Source of the DNA: an uncultured Verrucomicrobiae bacterium
GTDB taxonomy: Bacteria; Verrucomicrobiota; Verrucomicrobiia; Chthoniobacterales; JAFAMB01
Reading direction: 5' to 3'
Assembly (NCBI GenBank): GCA_963813025.1
Contig: CAWEXO010000003.1
Span: 22,607 to 86,606 of the forward strand
DNA: 64,000 nucleotides
A program made the position numbers and the translations under genes. The notes below the pieces were generated by a model that worked only from the letters and a program-made list of their open reading frames with translations, was not told where the DNA came from and did no database searches. This document shows positions 9,558-62,951 of the stretch, one piece after another (the stretch's first letter is position 1; each line of letters opens with the position of its first letter).

Positions 9558-10453
9558 CTCGACGTAGAAAGTAGGCAGCAGTGGGTCGGCAGTTAAGACC
9601 GGTGTGGCATTGGAGCTTTATGCCCGATAGCTAGTTTGGTTCCGAGCGTTTTGGTTGTTGCATTAGCGAAGCTCCAGATCGGGTTGTTTGCCGATCTGGA
9701 GCTATCCTGTTTAGGAGATTTCTCTCTATCTACCAACTCGGGCCGATGCGCTGCAGTGTGAAAGCAAGAACAACATCTAACCCAAGAGAGGTATGGCAAA
9801 GAAAACCACGACCAAGCGAAAGAACAAATCAAAAACTCACCGGAGTGTTCTGGAACGGATCAATCTCAAGGCCGCAGGAATCGATATCGGGGCGAATTTT
9901 CACCTGGTGGCCATTCCCGAAGACCGCGGCTCAGAAACGGTGCGCAAGTTTGGCCCTTTTACGAGCGATCTGCAGCGGATGGCTGACTGGCTGAGCGAAC
10001 ACCACATTGAGACCGTAGTGATGGAATCAACGGGGGTTTATTGGATACCGGTGTTCCAGATTCTGGAGCAGAGAGGGTTGGAGGTAAAATTGGTCAACGC
10101 AGCTCATGTCAAGAATCTGCCTGGACGCAAAAGCGACGTCTCGGACTGCCAATGGCTTCAACAACTCCACACCTTTGGTCTTTTAAACGGCTCGTTCCGA
10201 CCCAAGGACGAGGTCTGCGTCTTGCGCAGCTTCCTGCGCCTGCGCGACACCTTGGTTAAGGACTGCAGCAGCCATGTGTTACGCATGCAGAAGGCCTTAA
10301 CCGAAATGAATATCCAAGTGCACCGCGTGTTGAGCGACATCACCGGTTATAGTGGCATGGCGATGATTCGGGCGATTTTGGCCGGAGAACGCAATCCGCT
10401 CAAGCTTGCCCAGATGAAACACCCCCAAGTGAAAGCATCCACTGATCAGAAGA

Positions 10454-11861
10454 GAGATATTGTCAAAAGTTGTGTATTGGGAACGGGCGCATCCTTTGAA
10501 ATGATCGATTAAGCGGCCTGTTGGGTTTGTTCTTCGCCATCGACGAACCGGACACCAGTAACTACCTTTGGGATCAGTTCGAAGCCCTGAAGCCGGCGCC
10601 AATGCTTTTGGGCTTCCAGACCGAGTTTAAAGACCATTGTCAGTGTCGCGATTCGTGAACCGCAACCCTTTGTTCGGTGAGTTCGTAATCGGACGGTAGC
10701 AAAGGTGGATTCGATGGGGTTGGTGGTCCGTAAATGCGGCCAATGTTGGGCTGGGAAGTCGTAAAAGGTAAACAGGACTTCTTTATCTTTGTCCAAGCAT
10801 TCGCAGGCTTTTGGGAACTTGATTTGGTAACTGGAGATGAACTGATCGTAGGCCGCCAGAGCTGCTTTGCGGGTCGGCGCCAGGTACATTTCATGGATGA
10901 GTTGCTTAGCTTTACCTTGCACACTCTTGGGCATTTTATCCAGGATGTTGGCTGTCTTATGCACCCAACAACGTTGCTGGGCGATCGGGCCATATTCTTC
11001 CTGCAGAGCGATCCAGAAGCCGAGCGAACCGTCACCGATGGCCAACTTCGGCGCGGCGGACAGGCCTAGGCGTTTGAGCTGCCCAAGCAGTTCACGCCAG
11101 GATTGGGTGCTTTCGCGATAACCGTCGACAACAGCTAAGAGTTCTTTGGTGCCATCCTCGGTGGCTCCGATCAAGACCAGCACGCAGGTTCGCTCTTCGT
11201 CGAGTCGGACGTTGAAATAGACGCCGTCGGCCCACCAATAAACGTAACGCTTCTGCCTCAAGTCACGCTGAGTCCATGCCTTGTAATCGGCTTCCCAACT
11301 GCTCTTGAGTCTGACGATGTTGGTGGCTGAAAGCCCACTGGCTCCTTCGCCCAAAATCGCTGTCAACGCTTCGCTGAAATCTCCGGTTGAGATCCCTTTG
11401 AGGTAAAGGGCTGGAATCAAAGCATCGACGCTGGGAGCCCGACGCATATACTTGGGCAGAATCGCGCTGGAAAATCGACCTTGGTCGCGATGCCGGATCC
11501 GTGGCTGACGAACCCGGATCGGACCCACTCCACTGACCACCTCCCGCTCCGGCAGATGTCCATTGCGTACCACCAGCCGCTGCCCATTCTCATCCCGCTG
11601 ATCTTTGTGGAATTGGATATAGTCGATCACCTCATTCTCGATTGCCGCCTGTAACAGCTTCCTGGCCCCTTCCTGCAGTAACTGTTCCAGGAAGGGCTTC
11701 TCTTCATCTTTTGCTCGCTCATCAAGCGAGACCACTTTATTCTCTGGCATTGGTGCATCCTTTCTTTTTGGCGTCCTCGAGTGAGGCTGCCGTGTTTCTT
11801 TTTCTCACTGAAAGGATGCGCCTTTCTTTATCTCCTCATCCACAAAATTCGGTTATAGCTC
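10454..11861 (-). mobile_element. IS256-family element, apparently intact
   Basis: Imperfect TIRs GAGATATTGTCAAAAGTTGTG and (reverse complement) GAGCTATAACCGAATTTTGTG. 9-bp direct repeat CTGATCAGA at 10442-10450 and 11862-11870, with 3 extra nt on the left side. Confidence 0.92.
10509..11750 (-). CDS. IS256-family (Mutator-like) DDE transposase
   Basis: 413 aa with WADGVY, IGDGSLGF, QRCWVHK and RTTNPIES motifs. Confidence 0.95.
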   Translation of the reverse strand: MPENKVVSLDERAKDEEKPFLEQLLQEGARKLLQAAIENEVIDYIQFHKDQRDENGQRLVVRNGHLPEREVVSGVGPIRVRQPRIRHRDQGRFSSAILPKYMRRAPSVDALIPALYLKGISTGDFSEALTAILGEGASGLSATNIVRLKSSWEADYKAWTQRDLRQKRYVYWWADGVYFNVRLDEERTCVLVLIGATEDGTKELLAVVDGYRESTQSWRELLGQLKRLGLSAAPKLAIGDGSLGFWIALQEEYGPIAQQRCWVHKTANILDKMPKSVQGKAKQLIHEMYLAPTRKAALAAYDQFISSYQIKFPKACECLDKDKEVLFTFYDFPAQHWPHLRTTNPIESTFATVRLRTHRTKGCGSRIATLTMVFKLGLEAQKHWRRLQGFELIPKVVTGVRFVDGEEQTQQAA

Positions 11862-12018
11862 CTGATCAGATCGTCAAAGCCTTACAGGGAGATTACCGAG
11901 CCGAGCATCTCTTCGCCTTGCAAACGGCCCTGGAACTCTATGACACCTACCAGCTCAAGATCACCGCCTGCGAAAGCAAGATTGAGCAACAACTTGAGCA
12001 ATTCGACACTAAACTAGA

Positions 12019-13890
12019 CCTTAAGGAAGCGTGATTTAACCGCATGAGGGGACAAAAAAGCTCGAAATGCGCTTCGATGCTTGGTTTGCTGGGAAGTGCA
12101 AAGCTAACCAGACCAAGGAAGAAAGGCATTTCGAGTGAGTAGAAGTTATCCGAAGATCCTGCGTAATCGCAAGCGCCGAATCGAACGTCGTTTGGATCCT
12201 GAGCGGCGATGGAGTGAACAGCCGACACCGATGCTGAGTGCCAGCAACATCCATTTTGAGATGGCTGAACGTAACCGGGCGGTAAACTACGGCGGTATTG
12301 GCGCGATCCATCTAATGGGGCAGCGGCTAGGATTAGCCGAGGAGATCGATGGGCGGGTGCAGCTTCTCAAACGGCATTTGCCCTATCACGAAAGCGATCA
12401 TGTGTTGAACCTGGCCTACAATGCACTGTTGGATGGCCAACGGCTGGAAGATATCGAGTTGCGGCGCAACGATGAAGCTTTCCTGGAGGGTCTGGGCGCG
12501 CAACGTATCCCTGATCCGACTACCAGCGGAGATTTCACCCGGCGCTTTGACCAAGGCTCGATTCTGGATTTGCTGGAAGCCATCAACACGACTCGGCAGC
12601 GGGTGTGGAAAAAGCAGCCTCGGGCTTTTCTTGCCCAAGCCTTTCTTGATATCGATGGCACAATGGCTCCGACTTTAGGGGCGTGCAAAGGCGGAGTAGG
12701 GCTTTCCTACAAAGGCATCTGGGGTTATGCGCCCTTGATTGTCTCGTTGGCAAACACCCGAGAAGTGCTTTATCTGGTTAATCGGCCGGGCAACGTCGTC
12801 AGCCATGAAGGATGTGTGCCATGGATTGAGCGGGCCATCGAGTTGGTGCGCCCCCATGCCGGTGAGATCACGCTGCGCGGGGACAGCGATTTTACGCTCA
12901 GCGCCGAGTTAGATCGCTGGGATAGCCAAGGGATCAAATTTCTCTTTGGCATGGATGCTCATCAGAAAGTAGTGCAACTGGCCGAAGCCTTGCCGGAAGC
13001 AGGCTGGCAGCCGCTGGAACGCTTGGCTCGCTATGAAATTGCCACTGAGCCGCGACGTAAGCCCCTTCGGGTCAAGGAGGCAATTGTGCGGTTTAAGGGG
13101 TACTTGAACAAAAAGTTGGTGGGCGAAAGCGTGGCCGAGTTTAATTATCAGCCACTCAAATGCGGACGCAGCTATCGGCTGGTGGTGATGCGCAAAAACA
13201 TCAGCCTCCAGAAAGGGGAAACGGTGCTCTTGGAAGAGATTAGATACTTCTTCTATCTCACCAACCACACCAATTATCGGGCCCAAGAGATCGTGGCGCT
13301 GGCCAACCAGCGGTGTGACCAGGAGAATGTGATCGAGCAACTCAAAAATGGGGTTAACGCCATGCGCATGCCGGTAGACGATCTCCTCAGTAATTGGGCT
13401 TACATGGTCATCAGTGCCCTGGCCTGGAATCTCAAATCCTGGTATGGACTGCTTATGCCCAATCGGCAAAGGGGGCTGGAGCTAGTCCAGATGGAGTTCC
13501 GGCGCTTCCTGCATGCCATTGTGTTGTTGCCGGCACAGATCGTGCGCAGCGGTCGGAGGATCATTTATCGGATCATGGGTTACAACAGTTGGCTAAAAGA
13601 CTTCTTCGCTGCCTGGGAAAATCTTCGGCGGATGGCACCTGCCTGAAGCAGGCCTATTGACGATACTCTAGGCGGAACGCTCAAATTTCCAAGGCAGAGC
13701 TATGCCCTGGCGAGGCATGTATCGGCGCCCAAAATCGCACTAACTCCAAAAACTTTCATTGTTTTGGCCTGAGAAAAGCAAACCTGGGCCTTCGGTCGCC
13801 AGAACCAACCGGATTTGCACCATTTTCTAAGAATTTGCCTGGCCGAACGGGAAGTTCGTCGCGTCGCATTCGGAACTCGCTTATTTTGAG
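12019..13890 (+). mobile_element. IS1380-family element, apparently intact
   Basis: Ends CCTTAAGGAAGCG and (reverse complement) CTCAAAATAAGCG; 6-bp duplication ACTAGA at 12013-12018 and 13891-13896. Confidence 0.9.
12135..13646 (+). CDS. IS1380-family transposase
   Basis: 503 aa with LDIDGT, LRGDSDF and QRCDQENVIEQLK motifs. Confidence 0.93.
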   Translation: MSRSYPKILRNRKRRIERRLDPERRWSEQPTPMLSASNIHFEMAERNRAVNYGGIGAIHLMGQRLGLAEEIDGRVQLLKRHLPYHESDHVLNLAYNALLDGQRLEDIELRRNDEAFLEGLGAQRIPDPTTSGDFTRRFDQGSILDLLEAINTTRQRVWKKQPRAFLAQAFLDIDGTMAPTLGACKGGVGLSYKGIWGYAPLIVSLANTREVLYLVNRPGNVVSHEGCVPWIERAIELVRPHAGEITLRGDSDFTLSAELDRWDSQGIKFLFGMDAHQKVVQLAEALPEAGWQPLERLARYEIATEPRRKPLRVKEAIVRFKGYLNKKLVGESVAEFNYQPLKCGRSYRLVVMRKNISLQKGETVLLEEIRYFFYLTNHTNYRAQEIVALANQRCDQENVIEQLKNGVNAMRMPVDDLLSNWAYMVISALAWNLKSWYGLLMPNRQRGLELVQMEFRRFLHAIVLLPAQIVRSGRRIIYRIMGYNSWLKDFFAAWENLRRMAPA

Positions 13891-32877: not shown

Positions 32878-33396
32878 ATCGACGAATCGGACGCAAGTAA
32901 CTACCTTTGGGAGCAGTTCGAAGCCCTGGAGCCGGCGCCAATGCTTTTGGGCTTCCAGGCCGAGTTTAAAGACCATGGTCAGTGTCGCGATTCGTGAACC
33001 GGAACCCTTGGTTCGGTGAGTTCGCAGCCGAACGGTAGCGAAGGTGGATTCGATGGGATTGGTGGTCCGTAAATGCGGCCAATGTTGGGCCGGGAAGTCG
33101 TAAAAGGTAAACAGGACTTCTTGATCTTTCTGCAGGCACTCGCAGGCTTGAGGGAATTTAGCCCGGTAACTGGAGATGAACTGATCATAGGCTGCCAGAG
33201 CTGCTTTGCGGGTCGGCGCCAGGGCTGGAATCAGCGCATCAATGCTGGGAGCGCGACGCATGTACTTGGGCAGAATCGCACTGGAAAATCGACCCCTGTC
33301 ACGAGGCGTCCTCGAGTAAGGCTGCCGTGTTTCTTTTTCTCACTGAAAGGATGCGGCTTTCTTCATCTCCTCATCCACAAAATTCGGTTATAGCTC
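32878..33396 (-). mobile_element. Internally deleted, truncated copy of the IS256 element
   Basis: Near-identical to parts of 10454-11861, including the CACAAAATTCGGTTATAGCTC end; frame jumps IPAL|APTRKAAL. Confidence 0.9.
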
Positions 33397-45681: not shown

Positions 45682-45785
45682 AATCGGCACTGACAATCGT
45701 CTTTAAACTGGCCAGGGAAGCCCAAAGCATTGGCGCCGCTCCTAGCGTTTTGAACTCATCCGAAAGGTAGTTATTGGCGCCCGTT

Positions 45786-45857
45786 TCGTCGATGGGCGAA
45801 GAACAAACCCGACAAGCCGCAACCAAGTCATTTCCACGAGGATGCGCCTGTCCCATG
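45786..45857 (+). mobile_element. Short remnant of the IS256 transposase 3' end
   Basis: GTCGATGGGCGAAGAACAAACC...GGATGCGCC resembles the 3' end of 10509-11750. Confidence 0.6.
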
Positions 45858-60098: not shown

Positions 60099-60203
60099 AT
60101 GTATTCGTTAAAGAGCGCATTTGAGAAGGTCCTGTGGAATAGCCGCTTCGTTGTTCTGTTTGCAGTGATCACTAGCGTTCTGGCTGGGGTGGTTTTGTTC
60201 TGC
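60099..60203 (+). pseudogene. YqhA/UPF0114-like membrane protein N-terminal fragment
   Basis: MYSLKSAFEKVLWNSRFVVLFAVITSVL, cut by IS256-derived sequence. Confidence 0.55.
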
Positions 60204-60399
60204 GTCGATGGCGAAGAACAAACCCAACAGGCAGCCTAACCATCATTTAATTAACGCGATCGTTTTCGAAGGATGCGCCAGTAACCCGATACACAACTGA
60301 TACCAGTCTCAAAGTTGTTCACGTCGGCGGAAAGAACGCCGCTGACGAGAGCGTCATAACCGCCGCCGATGTGAATAACTTTGCCGCAGCCAAGGGGAC

Positions 60400-60600
60400 G
60401 ATTGTGAATGCCGCCGTTTCAAAACACAATCCGATGGGCTCAGGCAACTTTGGGCCAGCACGGTCTTACACAACCCGCCCTGAGAGGGCTTTCAAAAGAG
60501 CACCGACTGGCTGGAAGGCGCGGCGTCGAGAAGTCTGAGAGAACACCATCCCACGAGGATTCCAGTATCAGTTCGACTAGTGACGCGCGAGCGCTGGGCA
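60400..60600 (+). ncRNA. Predicted IS110 bridge RNA with target- and donor-binding loops
   Basis: Guides TACACAAC (60467-60474) and TCAAAAG (60492-60498) match the target; AGAGAACA (60538-60545) and GTATCAG (60565-60571) match the donor junction. Each pair flanks a hairpin and is closed by a stem. RNA ends are approximate. Confidence 0.85.
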
Positions 60601-60626
60601 CAATCAACCGTAAGAAAGGCAAAGAC

Positions 60627-61892
60627 ATGAAAAACTGGAATGAATTCACCCATTTCGCCGACATCGACTGGGCCAAGAACAAGCACGAGGTCGTCATTCT
60701 GGATCAATCCGGAAAAATCGTCGCTCGGTCTACGCTCACCCATGACGCGGCCGGCTGGCAGAACTGGAATCAATCGATTGTTAGCTACCGCGGGAATCTG
60801 GCCGTTTGCGTAGAAACGAATCAAGGTGCCGTGATCGAACGACTGCTTCAAAGTGATTGCCGCGTTTATCCGGTTCATCCACCCCGAGCCAAGCAATACC
60901 GCCAACGCAAGATCTCCAGTGGAAACAAGACCGATTTTCTTGACGCGTGGGCCTTGGCGGATGCGTTGCGCATGGACGGCTATAGCTGGCGGGCGCTGGG
61001 ACCGAGCGATCCACTGATCAATGAACTGCGTCTGCTGTGCCGCGATGAGGAGAGCTTCATCGAACAGAGGACGGCTTTGGTTAACCAACTCCAGCAAGCC
61101 CTCTACGAGTATTATCAAACCGCGCTGGATGCTTTCGAGGAATGGACCCTTCCCAGCGCTTGGGCGTTCGTGGAGCGTTTTCCCACCCCCGAGCTTCTGA
61201 TCGCTGCCGGCAAGCGCATGTGGCAGAAATTTCTCCACACTCATCGACTCGCTCATCCAAAGACCTTCGCCAAGCGATTGGACGTCTTTGCCAAAGCCGA
61301 CCGGTTCTTGGTTCGTAGCGAGATCAGCCGAGCCAAAAGTCGACAGGTATTGACTCTTATTCGGCTGCTGCGGGCCTTGGAAAGCCAGCTCGATGCTTAT
61401 CGTGATGAGATCGAGCGCTTGTTCGCCCAACATTCCGACTGCGATCTTTATCGCTCGTTGCCAGGAGTGGGCAAGAAACTCGGCCCACGCCTGCTTGGAG
61501 AAATTGGTTCGGACCGCTCAATGTTTTCCAGCTCACAAGCCTTGCAATGCGTGGCAGGAACGGCCCCCGTGAGCTACCAATCCGGCCAGATCCACAAGGT
61601 TTATCTTCGCCGTCACTGCAACAAGTTTCTGCGCCATACCGTTCACCTGTGGGCTGACCTAAGTCGCGCTCGCTCGCCCTGGGCCCAAATTTATTACCAG
61701 CAACAACGTAGTCGCGGCAGAAGCCATGCCTGTGCCATCCGCGCCTTGGGCCAACGTTGGCTGAAAATCCTTTGGAAAATGTGGGTCTCAAACACGTCTT
61801 ACAATCCTGATTTCCACACTAAGAACCAACTCGAACATGGTTCTTGGGTCCTCAAACTTCTTACCCAGAGCCCCAACTCATTAGGTCAATAA
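60627..61892 (+). CDS. IS110-family DEDD recombinase (421 aa)
   Basis: ADIDWA, CVETN, KTDFLDA (DEDD), SLPGVG, APVSYQSG catalytic Ser region; AAGAAAGG RBS before ATG 60627. Confidence 0.95.
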   Translation: MKNWNEFTHFADIDWAKNKHEVVILDQSGKIVARSTLTHDAAGWQNWNQSIVSYRGNLAVCVETNQGAVIERLLQSDCRVYPVHPPRAKQYRQRKISSGNKTDFLDAWALADALRMDGYSWRALGPSDPLINELRLLCRDEESFIEQRTALVNQLQQALYEYYQTALDAFEEWTLPSAWAFVERFPTPELLIAAGKRMWQKFLHTHRLAHPKTFAKRLDVFAKADRFLVRSEISRAKSRQVLTLIRLLRALESQLDAYRDEIERLFAQHSDCDLYRSLPGVGKKLGPRLLGEIGSDRSMFSSSQALQCVAGTAPVSYQSGQIHKVYLRRHCNKFLRHTVHLWADLSRARSPWAQIYYQQQRSRGRSHACAIRALGQRWLKILWKMWVSNTSYNPDFHTKNQLEHGSWVLKLLTQSPNSLGQ

Positions 61893-62051
61893 CTTGATAA
61901 ACAAGCGCTTGAGAACACAGAGAACATCTTTTGACAATATCTCGTTCTGTGTAGAGCCTCAGCTCAGCGTCAAAGATTGTGGAGGGCCATTTGCCTCCCA
62001 GGAAGACTTCGGCGACAGTTTAAGGTGAAATAATCTCCCTTTCTAAAAACC

Positions 62052-62951
62052 TTGTCAGAGCAAGGATCGGAAGGGAAAACACAATCACAAACCACCGGAA
62101 ACCCGATGAGCCAGAACCTCAATCTGCTCCGGCAGAATTATTGCCGGCCTGCCATCGTGACTGGCAAGGAAGTCTCTTACCTCTTTCCGTTAGAGAAAGA
62201 GTGCGAGCAGGGGAAAGCCCTCCTCGCAAAAGCACCAAAAACGTTACTTCACCTGCAAAAGTTCAATCCATACGGCCTTCAACAAACCTATCGAGACGAA
62301 ACTACCGGCGCGGAACTACCGGTCTTCGCGGTCTTCAACCTCGAAGGCGACCACCGATCCGCTTTCGAAATCACCACAGACTCCGTCCCCATAACCGCTG
62401 AGTCTGGCAGCCTTCCCGCCTACATTCCATTTCATAGAACTCAAGCGTTCGTAAGGAAAATCAACGAAGGGCGGATGAAGGTCGAACGGCCAGCGGCTCG
62501 AATCTCTGTGATCCTGGGTAGCTTCCCTGTACTGGCTTATCTCTTCTCCCACATCGCGGTATTGGCCAGCCCCAGAGCCCCCTTCATTTTTGCGGGCGGA
62601 TGGGCCCTTGGCGCATTCCTCGCGTACGTACTAAGTTTGTGCGTGCTCGATCGGCTTTGCCCCTGGAAGAAATTGGTCATCACCGCAGAATTTAACGGTA
62701 TCCTTCCGAAAGAAGTCCGGGAAAAAGCACGCGCGGCCAGAGACCGCTTCGACAACCTCTACCTCATCGTCGATCAGCAACACCGTTGGGAAAGTGCTTT
62801 CTTGCCTGATCCAAGGATGCGCGCCTTAGACCCGCTTTTGATCGGCGAGCTCAAGCACGGCGGCCGGCATCAATTTTTCCTGATCGACCAATTCGATCTC
62901 ACCGAAGCAGAGCAGTACCTCGCTGACGAATTTGCTACTAAGCTGGCTTGA
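62052..62951 (+). CDS. Hypothetical protein with two central TM segments
   Basis: 299-aa ORF (alternative start MSQNLN), two hydrophobic helices between soluble domains. Confidence 0.7.
   Translation: MSEQGSEGKTQSQTTGNPMSQNLNLLRQNYCRPAIVTGKEVSYLFPLEKECEQGKALLAKAPKTLLHLQKFNPYGLQQTYRDETTGAELPVFAVFNLEGDHRSAFEITTDSVPITAESGSLPAYIPFHRTQAFVRKINEGRMKVERPAARISVILGSFPVLAYLFSHIAVLASPRAPFIFAGGWALGAFLAYVLSLCVLDRLCPWKKLVITAEFNGILPKEVREKARAARDRFDNLYLIVDQQHRWESAFLPDPRMRALDPLLIGELKHGGRHQFFLIDQFDLTEAEQYLADEFATKLA

Follow-up and report, generated by a model that had tools for sequence, protein, structure and literature searches.

The window analyzed here, a stretch of 64,000 nucleotides from an uncultured Verrucomicrobiae bacterium, carries an insertion sequence (IS) of the IS110 group at 60299..61929 on the plus strand. 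The host genome (4.4 Mb in 16 contigs; completeness, 80%) contains the window as C3:22607-86606. The element measures 1631 bp, running from GATACC to GAGAACAT plus one copy of a CT dinucleotide core. Its only long open reading frame (ORF), 60627-61892, leaves noncoding arms of 328 nt on the left and 37 nt on the right. Consistent with membership in the IS110 group, the element is without terminal inverted repeats, its noncoding ends are long on the left and short on the right, and the core CT occurs at the target and at both junctions. The left junction reads ...GATACACAA-CT/GATACC (here and below, the slash marks the boundary of an element), with the core CT at 60297-60298, and the right junction reads ...GAGAACAT-CT/TTTGACAATATCTC, with the second core at 61928-61929.

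Both flanks of the IS110 element come from the right end of an IS256-family element. The left flank is an IS256-family remnant (60203..60298, plus strand), recognized by its sequence match to an intact copy elsewhere in the window. It comprises the transposase tail VDGEEQTQQAA with its stop codon, encoded at 60204-60239 and likewise in the intact copy, together with the inward portion of the right terminal repeat, whose last bases are the left target TACACAA (60290-60296) and then the core. On the right, the second core CT and the outer 14 bp of the same terminal repeat (TTTGACAATATCTC) occupy 61928..61943 (plus strand), of which 61930-61943 are the IS256 tip; unrelated DNA lies beyond. Rejoined around a single CT, the two flanks reproduce, in reverse complement, the right end of the intact IS256 (10454-10476). 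An earlier, sequence-only reading of this DNA had reported this identity, the transposase tail in the upstream flank, and two blocks in a left-end RNA that match the two halves of the site (TACACAAC at 60467-60474 and TCAAAAG at 60492-60498); all of these were found in place. The identical flank variant stands unoccupied at C13:451028.

The IS256 copy that was struck is itself reduced to a remnant of ∼96 bp (60203-60298) plus the 14-bp tip and is joined to a truncated host gene. This is the N-terminal fragment of a membrane-protein gene (UPF0114-like; 60099..60202, plus strand), in frame with the transposase tail; the Pfam match to UPF0114 is weak (E 0.0054, under the curated cutoff; residues 12-36 against profile positions 1-25). 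A chimeric ORF of 46 codons (60099-60239) thereby places the start of the UPF0114-like gene in frame with the last 11 IS256 transposase codons, and a deletion therefore removed most of that IS256 copy. Contigs from four soil metagenome runs that match 60203-60242 continue upstream into IS256 transposase sequence, not into the host gene.

The ORF of the IS110 element encodes an intact recombinase of 421 aa (60627..61892, plus strand) with the family's two domains, an N-terminal DEDD RuvC-like domain bearing the four acidic residues and a C-terminal Tnp domain bearing the catalytic serine (Pfam PF01548, DEDD_Tnp_IS110, E 2.6e-28; PF02371, Transposase_20, E 6.4e-15). The sole relative of solved structure is the IS621 recombinase (chain 8wt6_A; phmmer E 3.5e-10). 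Alignment to this Protein Data Bank (PDB) chain places D14, E63, D103, D106, and S319-G320 opposite the IS621 catalytic residues. The counterparts of the four acidic residues in the chain are D13, the E of CIEA, D104, and D107, and S319-G320, invariant across eight relatives, stands opposite the ESG of IS621. Bridge RNAs and IS621 were described by Durrant et al. 2024 (PMC11208160) and Hiraizumi et al. 2024 (PMC11208158). The latter names the IS621 catalytic residues D11, E60, D102, D105, and S241-G242, so that the correspondence presumes a two-residue offset between chain and paper.

The intact IS256-family element occupies 10454..11861 on the minus strand (1408 bp) and encodes a 413-aa transposase at 10509-11750, which matches PF00872 (Transposase_mut) with E 2.3e-61 over 374 residues. 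With the element oriented by its transposase, the core CT corresponds to positions 15-16 from the right tip and falls inside an imperfect terminal repeat of ∼28 bp, in which 18 of the 28 positions are common to both IS256 ends; the target site is not present in the left end. The intact copy holds an empty type-1 target (10463-10476) together with an empty target of a second IS110 lineage, described below (11753-11766). The 14-mer TACACAACTTTTGA has 16 exact matches in the 4.4-Mb genome, against ∼0.03 expected by our own estimate. All 16 are unoccupied and lie in IS256 right-end context, with ...GGATGCGCC... upstream and CAATAT(C/T)TC downstream. Both of the one-mismatch matches are at IS256-family right ends as well, and among the 13 two-mismatch matches, 2 resemble IS256 ends and 11 do not.

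The left arm of the IS110 element specifies a bridge RNA of two stem-loops, both on the plus strand. Stem-loop 1 (60446..60519) carries the target-binding loop and is defined by the consensus fold, pair counts, and comparison of guides to flanks; stem-loop 2 (60520..60588) carries the donor-binding loop and is defined by the consensus fold and pair counts. The fold was derived from 18 aligned sequences, namely a 181-nt segment of the left arm and the corresponding segments of 17 relatives drawn from the host genome, public genome contigs, and related genomes. The RNAalifold consensus consists of two stem-loops with a large internal loop in each. It comprises 30 pairs, with 92.6% of cells paired and both-sided (compensatory) change in 21 of the 30. 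None of 500 shuffles attained any of five pairing measures, and sliding the partners by 1 to 3 columns gave only 6 to 13 compensatory pairs.

The two loops are complementary to the target and to the joined element ends, as expected of a left-end bridge RNA. The left target guide (60467-60475), on the 5′ side of loop 1, consists of TACACAAC (8 nt, 60467-60474), which has the top-strand sequence of the left target and the core C, followed by C at 60475, where relatives carry T. On the 3′ side of loop 1, the right target guide TCAAAAG (7 nt, 60492-60498) is the reverse complement of CT+TTTGA. In the donor loop, the left guide AGAGAACA (60538-60545) equals the right end of the IS110 element, and the right guide GTATCAG (60565-60571) is the reverse complement of CT+GATAC. 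Handshake bases follow both right guides, at 60499-60500 after the target guide and as UU at 60572-60573 after the donor guide, where they face the target AA. The strand, side, and order of the guides agree with the IS621 model (PMC11208160).

Guides and flanks were compared for 16 elements with mapped junctions by taking the longest common run between each loop segment and the element's own flank; 189 noncognate guide/flank pairings served as a control, and the shared CT was counted in every case. The window element shares 8 nt with its left flank and 7 nt with its right flank. Cognate left matches were 8, 5, 4, 6, 5, 7, 7, 7, 6, 6, 3, 7, 8 (window), 3, 9, and 9 nt, thus spanning 3 to 9 nt and reaching at least 5 nt in 12/16 elements. 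For the right side, where the flanks of 14 of the 16 elements were long enough to be scored, they were 6, 8, 7, 7, 4, 3, 8, 5, 8, 8, 7 (window), 3, 7, and 7 nt (3 to 8 nt; at least 5 nt in 11/14). Most noncognate pairings shared 2 to 4 nt, and at least 5 nt were shared by 14/189 on the left and 15/189 on the right; a run of 8 nt occurred in 1/189 left pairings and a run of 7 nt in 0/189 right pairings. Because the 8- and 7-nt cognate runs of the window element lie above nearly all noncognate ones and the 14-mer is found 16 times where ∼0.03 matches are expected, the match between RNA and site is beyond chance. As for the handshake, donor position 7 is complementary to the base following the right target guide in 16/16 elements, and target position 7 to the base following the right donor guide in 14/16. 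The two exceptions are L002 and a second-lineage element in the host genome (copy B), whose left flanks fail the guide test as well as the handshake.

Other related IS110 elements lie in multicopy sequences of their hosts (L003, L004, and L005, from one metagenome bin, and L014-L017, from one complete chromosome). Such relatives at multicopy sites in other Verrucomicrobiota include three copies with identical 30-nt flanks on both sides and four at NNACCC-CT-CNC-like sites. The guides of L003-L005 and L014-L017 fit their own flanks to varying degrees.

The sequence-only reading had anticipated that other copies of the element would be flanked by the IS256 end each time. The window element is present in one copy in its own genome, the next matches having 65 to 73% nucleotide identity, and a search of 60 related genomes turned up no close copy (best, ∼65% at the nucleotide level). 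A scan of public genome contigs with the recombinase returned 20 loci, all 54 to 72% identical by best segment, from Verrucomicrobiota-type metagenome bins with the sole exception of one bin labeled Bacteroidetes. None of these 20 loci is in an IS256 end; the ends CT/GATAC...GAGAACAT/CT are kept in 14 of them and in the own-genome relatives. When the IS256 transposase was compared by tblastn with loci L001-L040, matches were limited to L035, from the host genome itself, and one weak nonadjacent match in L018. Close relatives of the recombinase are confined to metagenome proteins, in clusters of 96, 94, 90, and 86% identity with 43, 13, 6, and 2 members, respectively. When metagenomes were scanned with a lineage-specific segment of 59 aa, none of the 594 pattern hits was confirmed; the collection seems to be without the short JGI contigs of P0001-P0004.

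DNA contexts beyond the window could nevertheless be compared. L041, a metagenome contig of 2381 bp, carries an IS110 element 93% identical to that of the window. To its left lie 581 bp of contiguous IS256 sequence, 90% identical to positions 823-1394 of the reference copy and ending ...GATACACAACT/GATACC, and its right side reads GAGAACAT/CT/TTTGACAATATCTC followed by a new outer flank. In soil runs X1 and X2, contigs span the right junction as far as the base equivalent to 61943 and then enter two further distinct flanks; record 2 of run X1 crosses the left junction in the window's own IS256 variant. A contig of run X7 (∼97% identical) has its left junction within another variant of the IS256 end, and record 15 of run X3 extends across the left junction, its 58 bases upstream of 60285 being unaligned and unread. 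In total, 5/5 contexts with readable flanks (L041, two in X1, X2, and X7) are in IS256 right ends at the same base, and the right-hand outer flanks of the window, L041, X1, and X2 are all four mutually different. Read-through ORFs across the left junction read ...YTT/DT (P0131 and P0004) or ...YTS/DT (P0152), and YTT/DT back-translates to TACACAACT/GATAC. Because the BLASTP matches of the read-through N termini to frame translations of the IS256 end were short and nonsignificant (best E, 1.2 for P0152 and 0.035 for P0131), these ORFs are counted as consistent, not decisive. The expectation was thus borne out in every readable case, and the specialization of this lineage in the IS256 right-end site is supported.

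A second IS110 lineage in the same genome inserts into another site of the same IS256 family. Its recombinase, on contig C13, is ∼57% identical to that of the window, and its ends read CT/GATACGG...GAGAACAT/CT. It is inserted three times at GGTGCATC-CT-TTCTT, IS256 positions 101/102, in the opposite orientation (C13, ∼451.0-454.1 kb, 350.9-355.2 kb, and 254.5-255.0 kb; two complete or interrupted, one a right-end fragment). This site lies between AAGGA, which resembles a ribosome-binding site, and the ATG of the IS256 transposase gene. IS110 elements of the IS900/IS901/IS902 type insert into genes in the interval from the ribosome-binding site to the start codon. The second lineage resembles them in this respect and differs in that its site belongs to the transposase gene of another IS and is explained by a guide match. 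Its guides, GGUGCAUCC and AAGAAAG, occupy the same loop positions as those of the window element, with the guide match displaced by one base relative to the window register. Where the targets differ, so do the guide blocks in the aligned left arms (UUACACAAC...UUUCAAAAG in the window and CGGUGCAUC...UCAAGAAAG in the second lineage). All nine exact genomic copies of GTGCATCCTTTCTT are in IS256 leaders; two one-mismatch matches are elsewhere.

Copy B (L038; C13, ∼18.5-20.2 kb) is a fourth, intact copy of the second lineage with the same guides. It sits in a repeat of ∼70 bp found at dozens of genome sites, which neither its guides nor its handshake base matches, and its right end reads GAGAACGT rather than GAGAACAT. 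Its location may result from an off-target event or a later exchange of flanks. A maximum-likelihood tree of 25 rows recovers the window lineage as a clade (support, 100/100) and P0005 as its sister (99/98). Copy B stands elsewhere, among lineages with other targets; the backbone of the tree is unresolved and the branch to the outgroup very long. Among the lineages sampled, the two are therefore not sisters, and the targeting of IS256 may have arisen independently in each.

These observations make it very probable that 60299-61929 is an IS110-group bridge recombinase with a bridge RNA that directs insertion into one exact site in the IS256 right terminal repeat. The proposal of the sequence-only reading that the RNA is programmed against the IS256 repeat is accordingly upheld by the covarying two-loop fold, the in-register guides, the fit of the handshake bases, and the repeated junction. 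By homology to IS621, the element would excise as a circle joining GAGAACAT-CT-GATACC. The donor loop of the bridge RNA, presumably expressed from the left arm, would pair with the circle junction via AGAGAACA and GTATCAG, and the DEDD residues and the serine of a recombinase tetramer would carry out strand exchange at the CT core. By eye, the only promoter-like feature across the junction of right and left ends is a weak −35/−10 candidate. The likeliest logic of such targeting would be that IS256 offers a multicopy, horizontally traveling site where insertion is free of cost to the host, the splitting of the IS256 repeat being a side effect.

Several results weigh against this interpretation. 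The single-sequence fold of 60420-60600 was no better than those of shuffles (z = −0.99), with part of the guides paired, and since it is not significant, structural support comes from the alignment only. An Rfam scan of 60100-62100 with E up to 1 returned no family, although Rfam 15 may hold no bridge-RNA model. The guides do not match every insertion of the clade, copy B and the left flank of L002 being the cases in point. The material from the soil runs consists of assembled contigs, which are unable to reveal circles, recombination, or RNA, and no joint across the junction of right and left ends was among those listed. Two differences fall inside the bridge RNA. Position 60475 is C in the window element and in run X1 and T in runs X2, X3, and X7 and in L041, where the T makes a perfect 9-mer guide, TACACAA+CT; a surplus base near 60512 in the window element is without counterpart in all four soil runs. 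The window copy may therefore be slightly decayed. Finally, a single copy stands against 16 perfect targets that are all empty, and the element may have little or no activity in this genome.

The last two points lead to the best-surviving alternative, that the window element is a dead relic, once RNA guided and now immobile, whose association with IS256 in this genome is a fossil. Besides the bridge RNA differences and the empty targets, the location of the single copy in a truncated 96-bp IS256 remnant fits this view. However, the recombinase ORF is intact over its 421 aa, all five catalytic residues are present, and the protein has 96% identity to a metagenomic cluster with 43 members, which indicates that the lineage is young and spreading. 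IS621, moreover, tolerates some guide mismatches, though poorly (PMC11208160). A dead relic is thus a possible but rather unlikely explanation, and the window copy may still be active.

Less probable still is the view that the targeting disables IS256, with an "anti-transposon" effect to the advantage of the host or the IS110 element, beyond the provision of a neutral repeated site. This view draws on the occurrence, in one genome, of two nonsister lineages at two IS256 sites critical to function, one in the terminal repeat and one in the spacer from ribosome-binding site to start codon, and on the broken transposase ORFs (199 and 259 aa) of both IS256 copies held by the second lineage. Yet the ORF is broken in five unoccupied IS256 copies too, and the four copies with an intact 413-aa ORF, all unoccupied and 100% identical, are just the most recent ones; occupancy and decay may each be a matter of age only. 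These ORF data are likewise uninformative about the immobilization of struck IS256 copies that the sequence-only reading had thought probable. Any sequence of 10 to 20 copies would, furthermore, be attractive to an IS110 element, as the repetitive extragenic palindromic (REP) sequence is to IS621 (PMC11208160). The strongest version, in which each of the two nonsister lineages was retargeted to a critical IS256 site and together they constitute a natural, heritable, RNA-guided interference of transposon against transposon that silences IS256, is doubtful to a slightly greater degree. A chance landing in an IS256 end with coincidental RNA matches, for which the single insertion in its own genome might be cited, has a negligible probability and was ruled out by the guide/flank control and by the same junction in five further DNA contexts, given 8- and 7-nt matches in the right loops, on the right strands, and in the right register, and guide blocks that vary between lineages in step with their targets.

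Bridge recombination directed at the IS256 repeat can be set beside several characterized systems. The window element resembles IS621 of Escherichia coli in its two-domain recombinase with aligned D/E/D/D and S residues, its two-loop RNA at the left end, its CT core, and its handshake bases. It differs in that the protein is distant (phmmer E as given above; 421 aa against the 328-residue PDB chain), the target is the end of another IS rather than the REP sequence, and the right target guide has 7 nt rather than the 4 nt of wild-type IS621. IS4321 and IS5075 insert into Tn21-family repeats (Partridge and Hall 2003, cited in PMC11208160 and PMC11208158); they too enter another mobile element's terminal repeat at one set position and in one orientation. 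They belong to the IS1111 group, which has subterminal inverted repeats and a guide RNA downstream of the gene (PMC11187229). The window element is of the IS110 group, without subterminal inverted repeats and with its RNA upstream; just 37 nt lie downstream of its gene, so that membership in the IS1111 group does not apply.

A close precedent in choice of target comes from Pseudomonas putida H, where IS1383 inserts into the inverted repeats of IS1384 (Muller, Lauf, Herrmann 2001, Mol Genet Genomics 265:1004, cited in PMC11208160 and PMC11208158). As far as these accounts go, IS1383 is likewise an IS110-family element with the inverted repeat of another IS as its specific target; it differs in host phylum and in the family of the target IS. 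To our knowledge, the guide-RNA basis of IS110-type targeting was not known in 2001. The sequence-only reading had suggested that targeting of IS256 ends was undescribed. This holds for the target within the literature searched (without supplements and not covering ISfinder), where no publication naming IS256 as an IS110 target was found, and IS256 goes unmentioned in the accessible portions of PMC11187229 and of the preprint 10.64898/2026.08.14.744561; it does not hold for the principle, in print since 2001 with IS1383 in IS1384. What is new here is thus the target family, not the principle, and the mechanism is IS621-type bridge recombination.

The surroundings of the intact IS256 are themselves a nest of insertion sequences (window positions 9793-13646). 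The intact copy splits the transposase gene of another IS110-family element, whose DEDD domain lies in 9793-10453 and whose open frame resumes after 11862, and a DDE_Tnp_1_4 transposase gene (12135-13646) comes next. The palindrome CTGATCAG flanks the copy (10442-10453 and 11862-11869); because it is set off from the tip by 4 extra bases on the right-end side, the expected 8-bp target duplication is not clean. The 39 bp to the right of the copy recur at 12 other genome sites with 100% identity. The reverse arrangement occurs on contig C5 (∼276.3-278.9 kb), where the gene of a relative of the IS110 recombinase is split by a full-length IS256 (277053-278464). Degraded IS256 fragments at 32878-33396 and 45710-45795 are 77 to 97% identical to parts of the intact copy.

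No new mechanism is revealed by this locus; its value lies in a well-resolved natural example of the reprogramming of bridge-RNA guides, in which guide blocks for two sites of an abundant transposon are borne on the same scaffold. Changes in the guides are matched by changes in the handshake bases, and independent soil metagenomes show the same junction again. IS256-family ends thereby join the mobile-element ends into which IS110-family elements home, and the 16 empty sites and 1 occupied site in a single genome offer a compact natural case in which any restraint of the targeted transposon by such insertions could be assessed.

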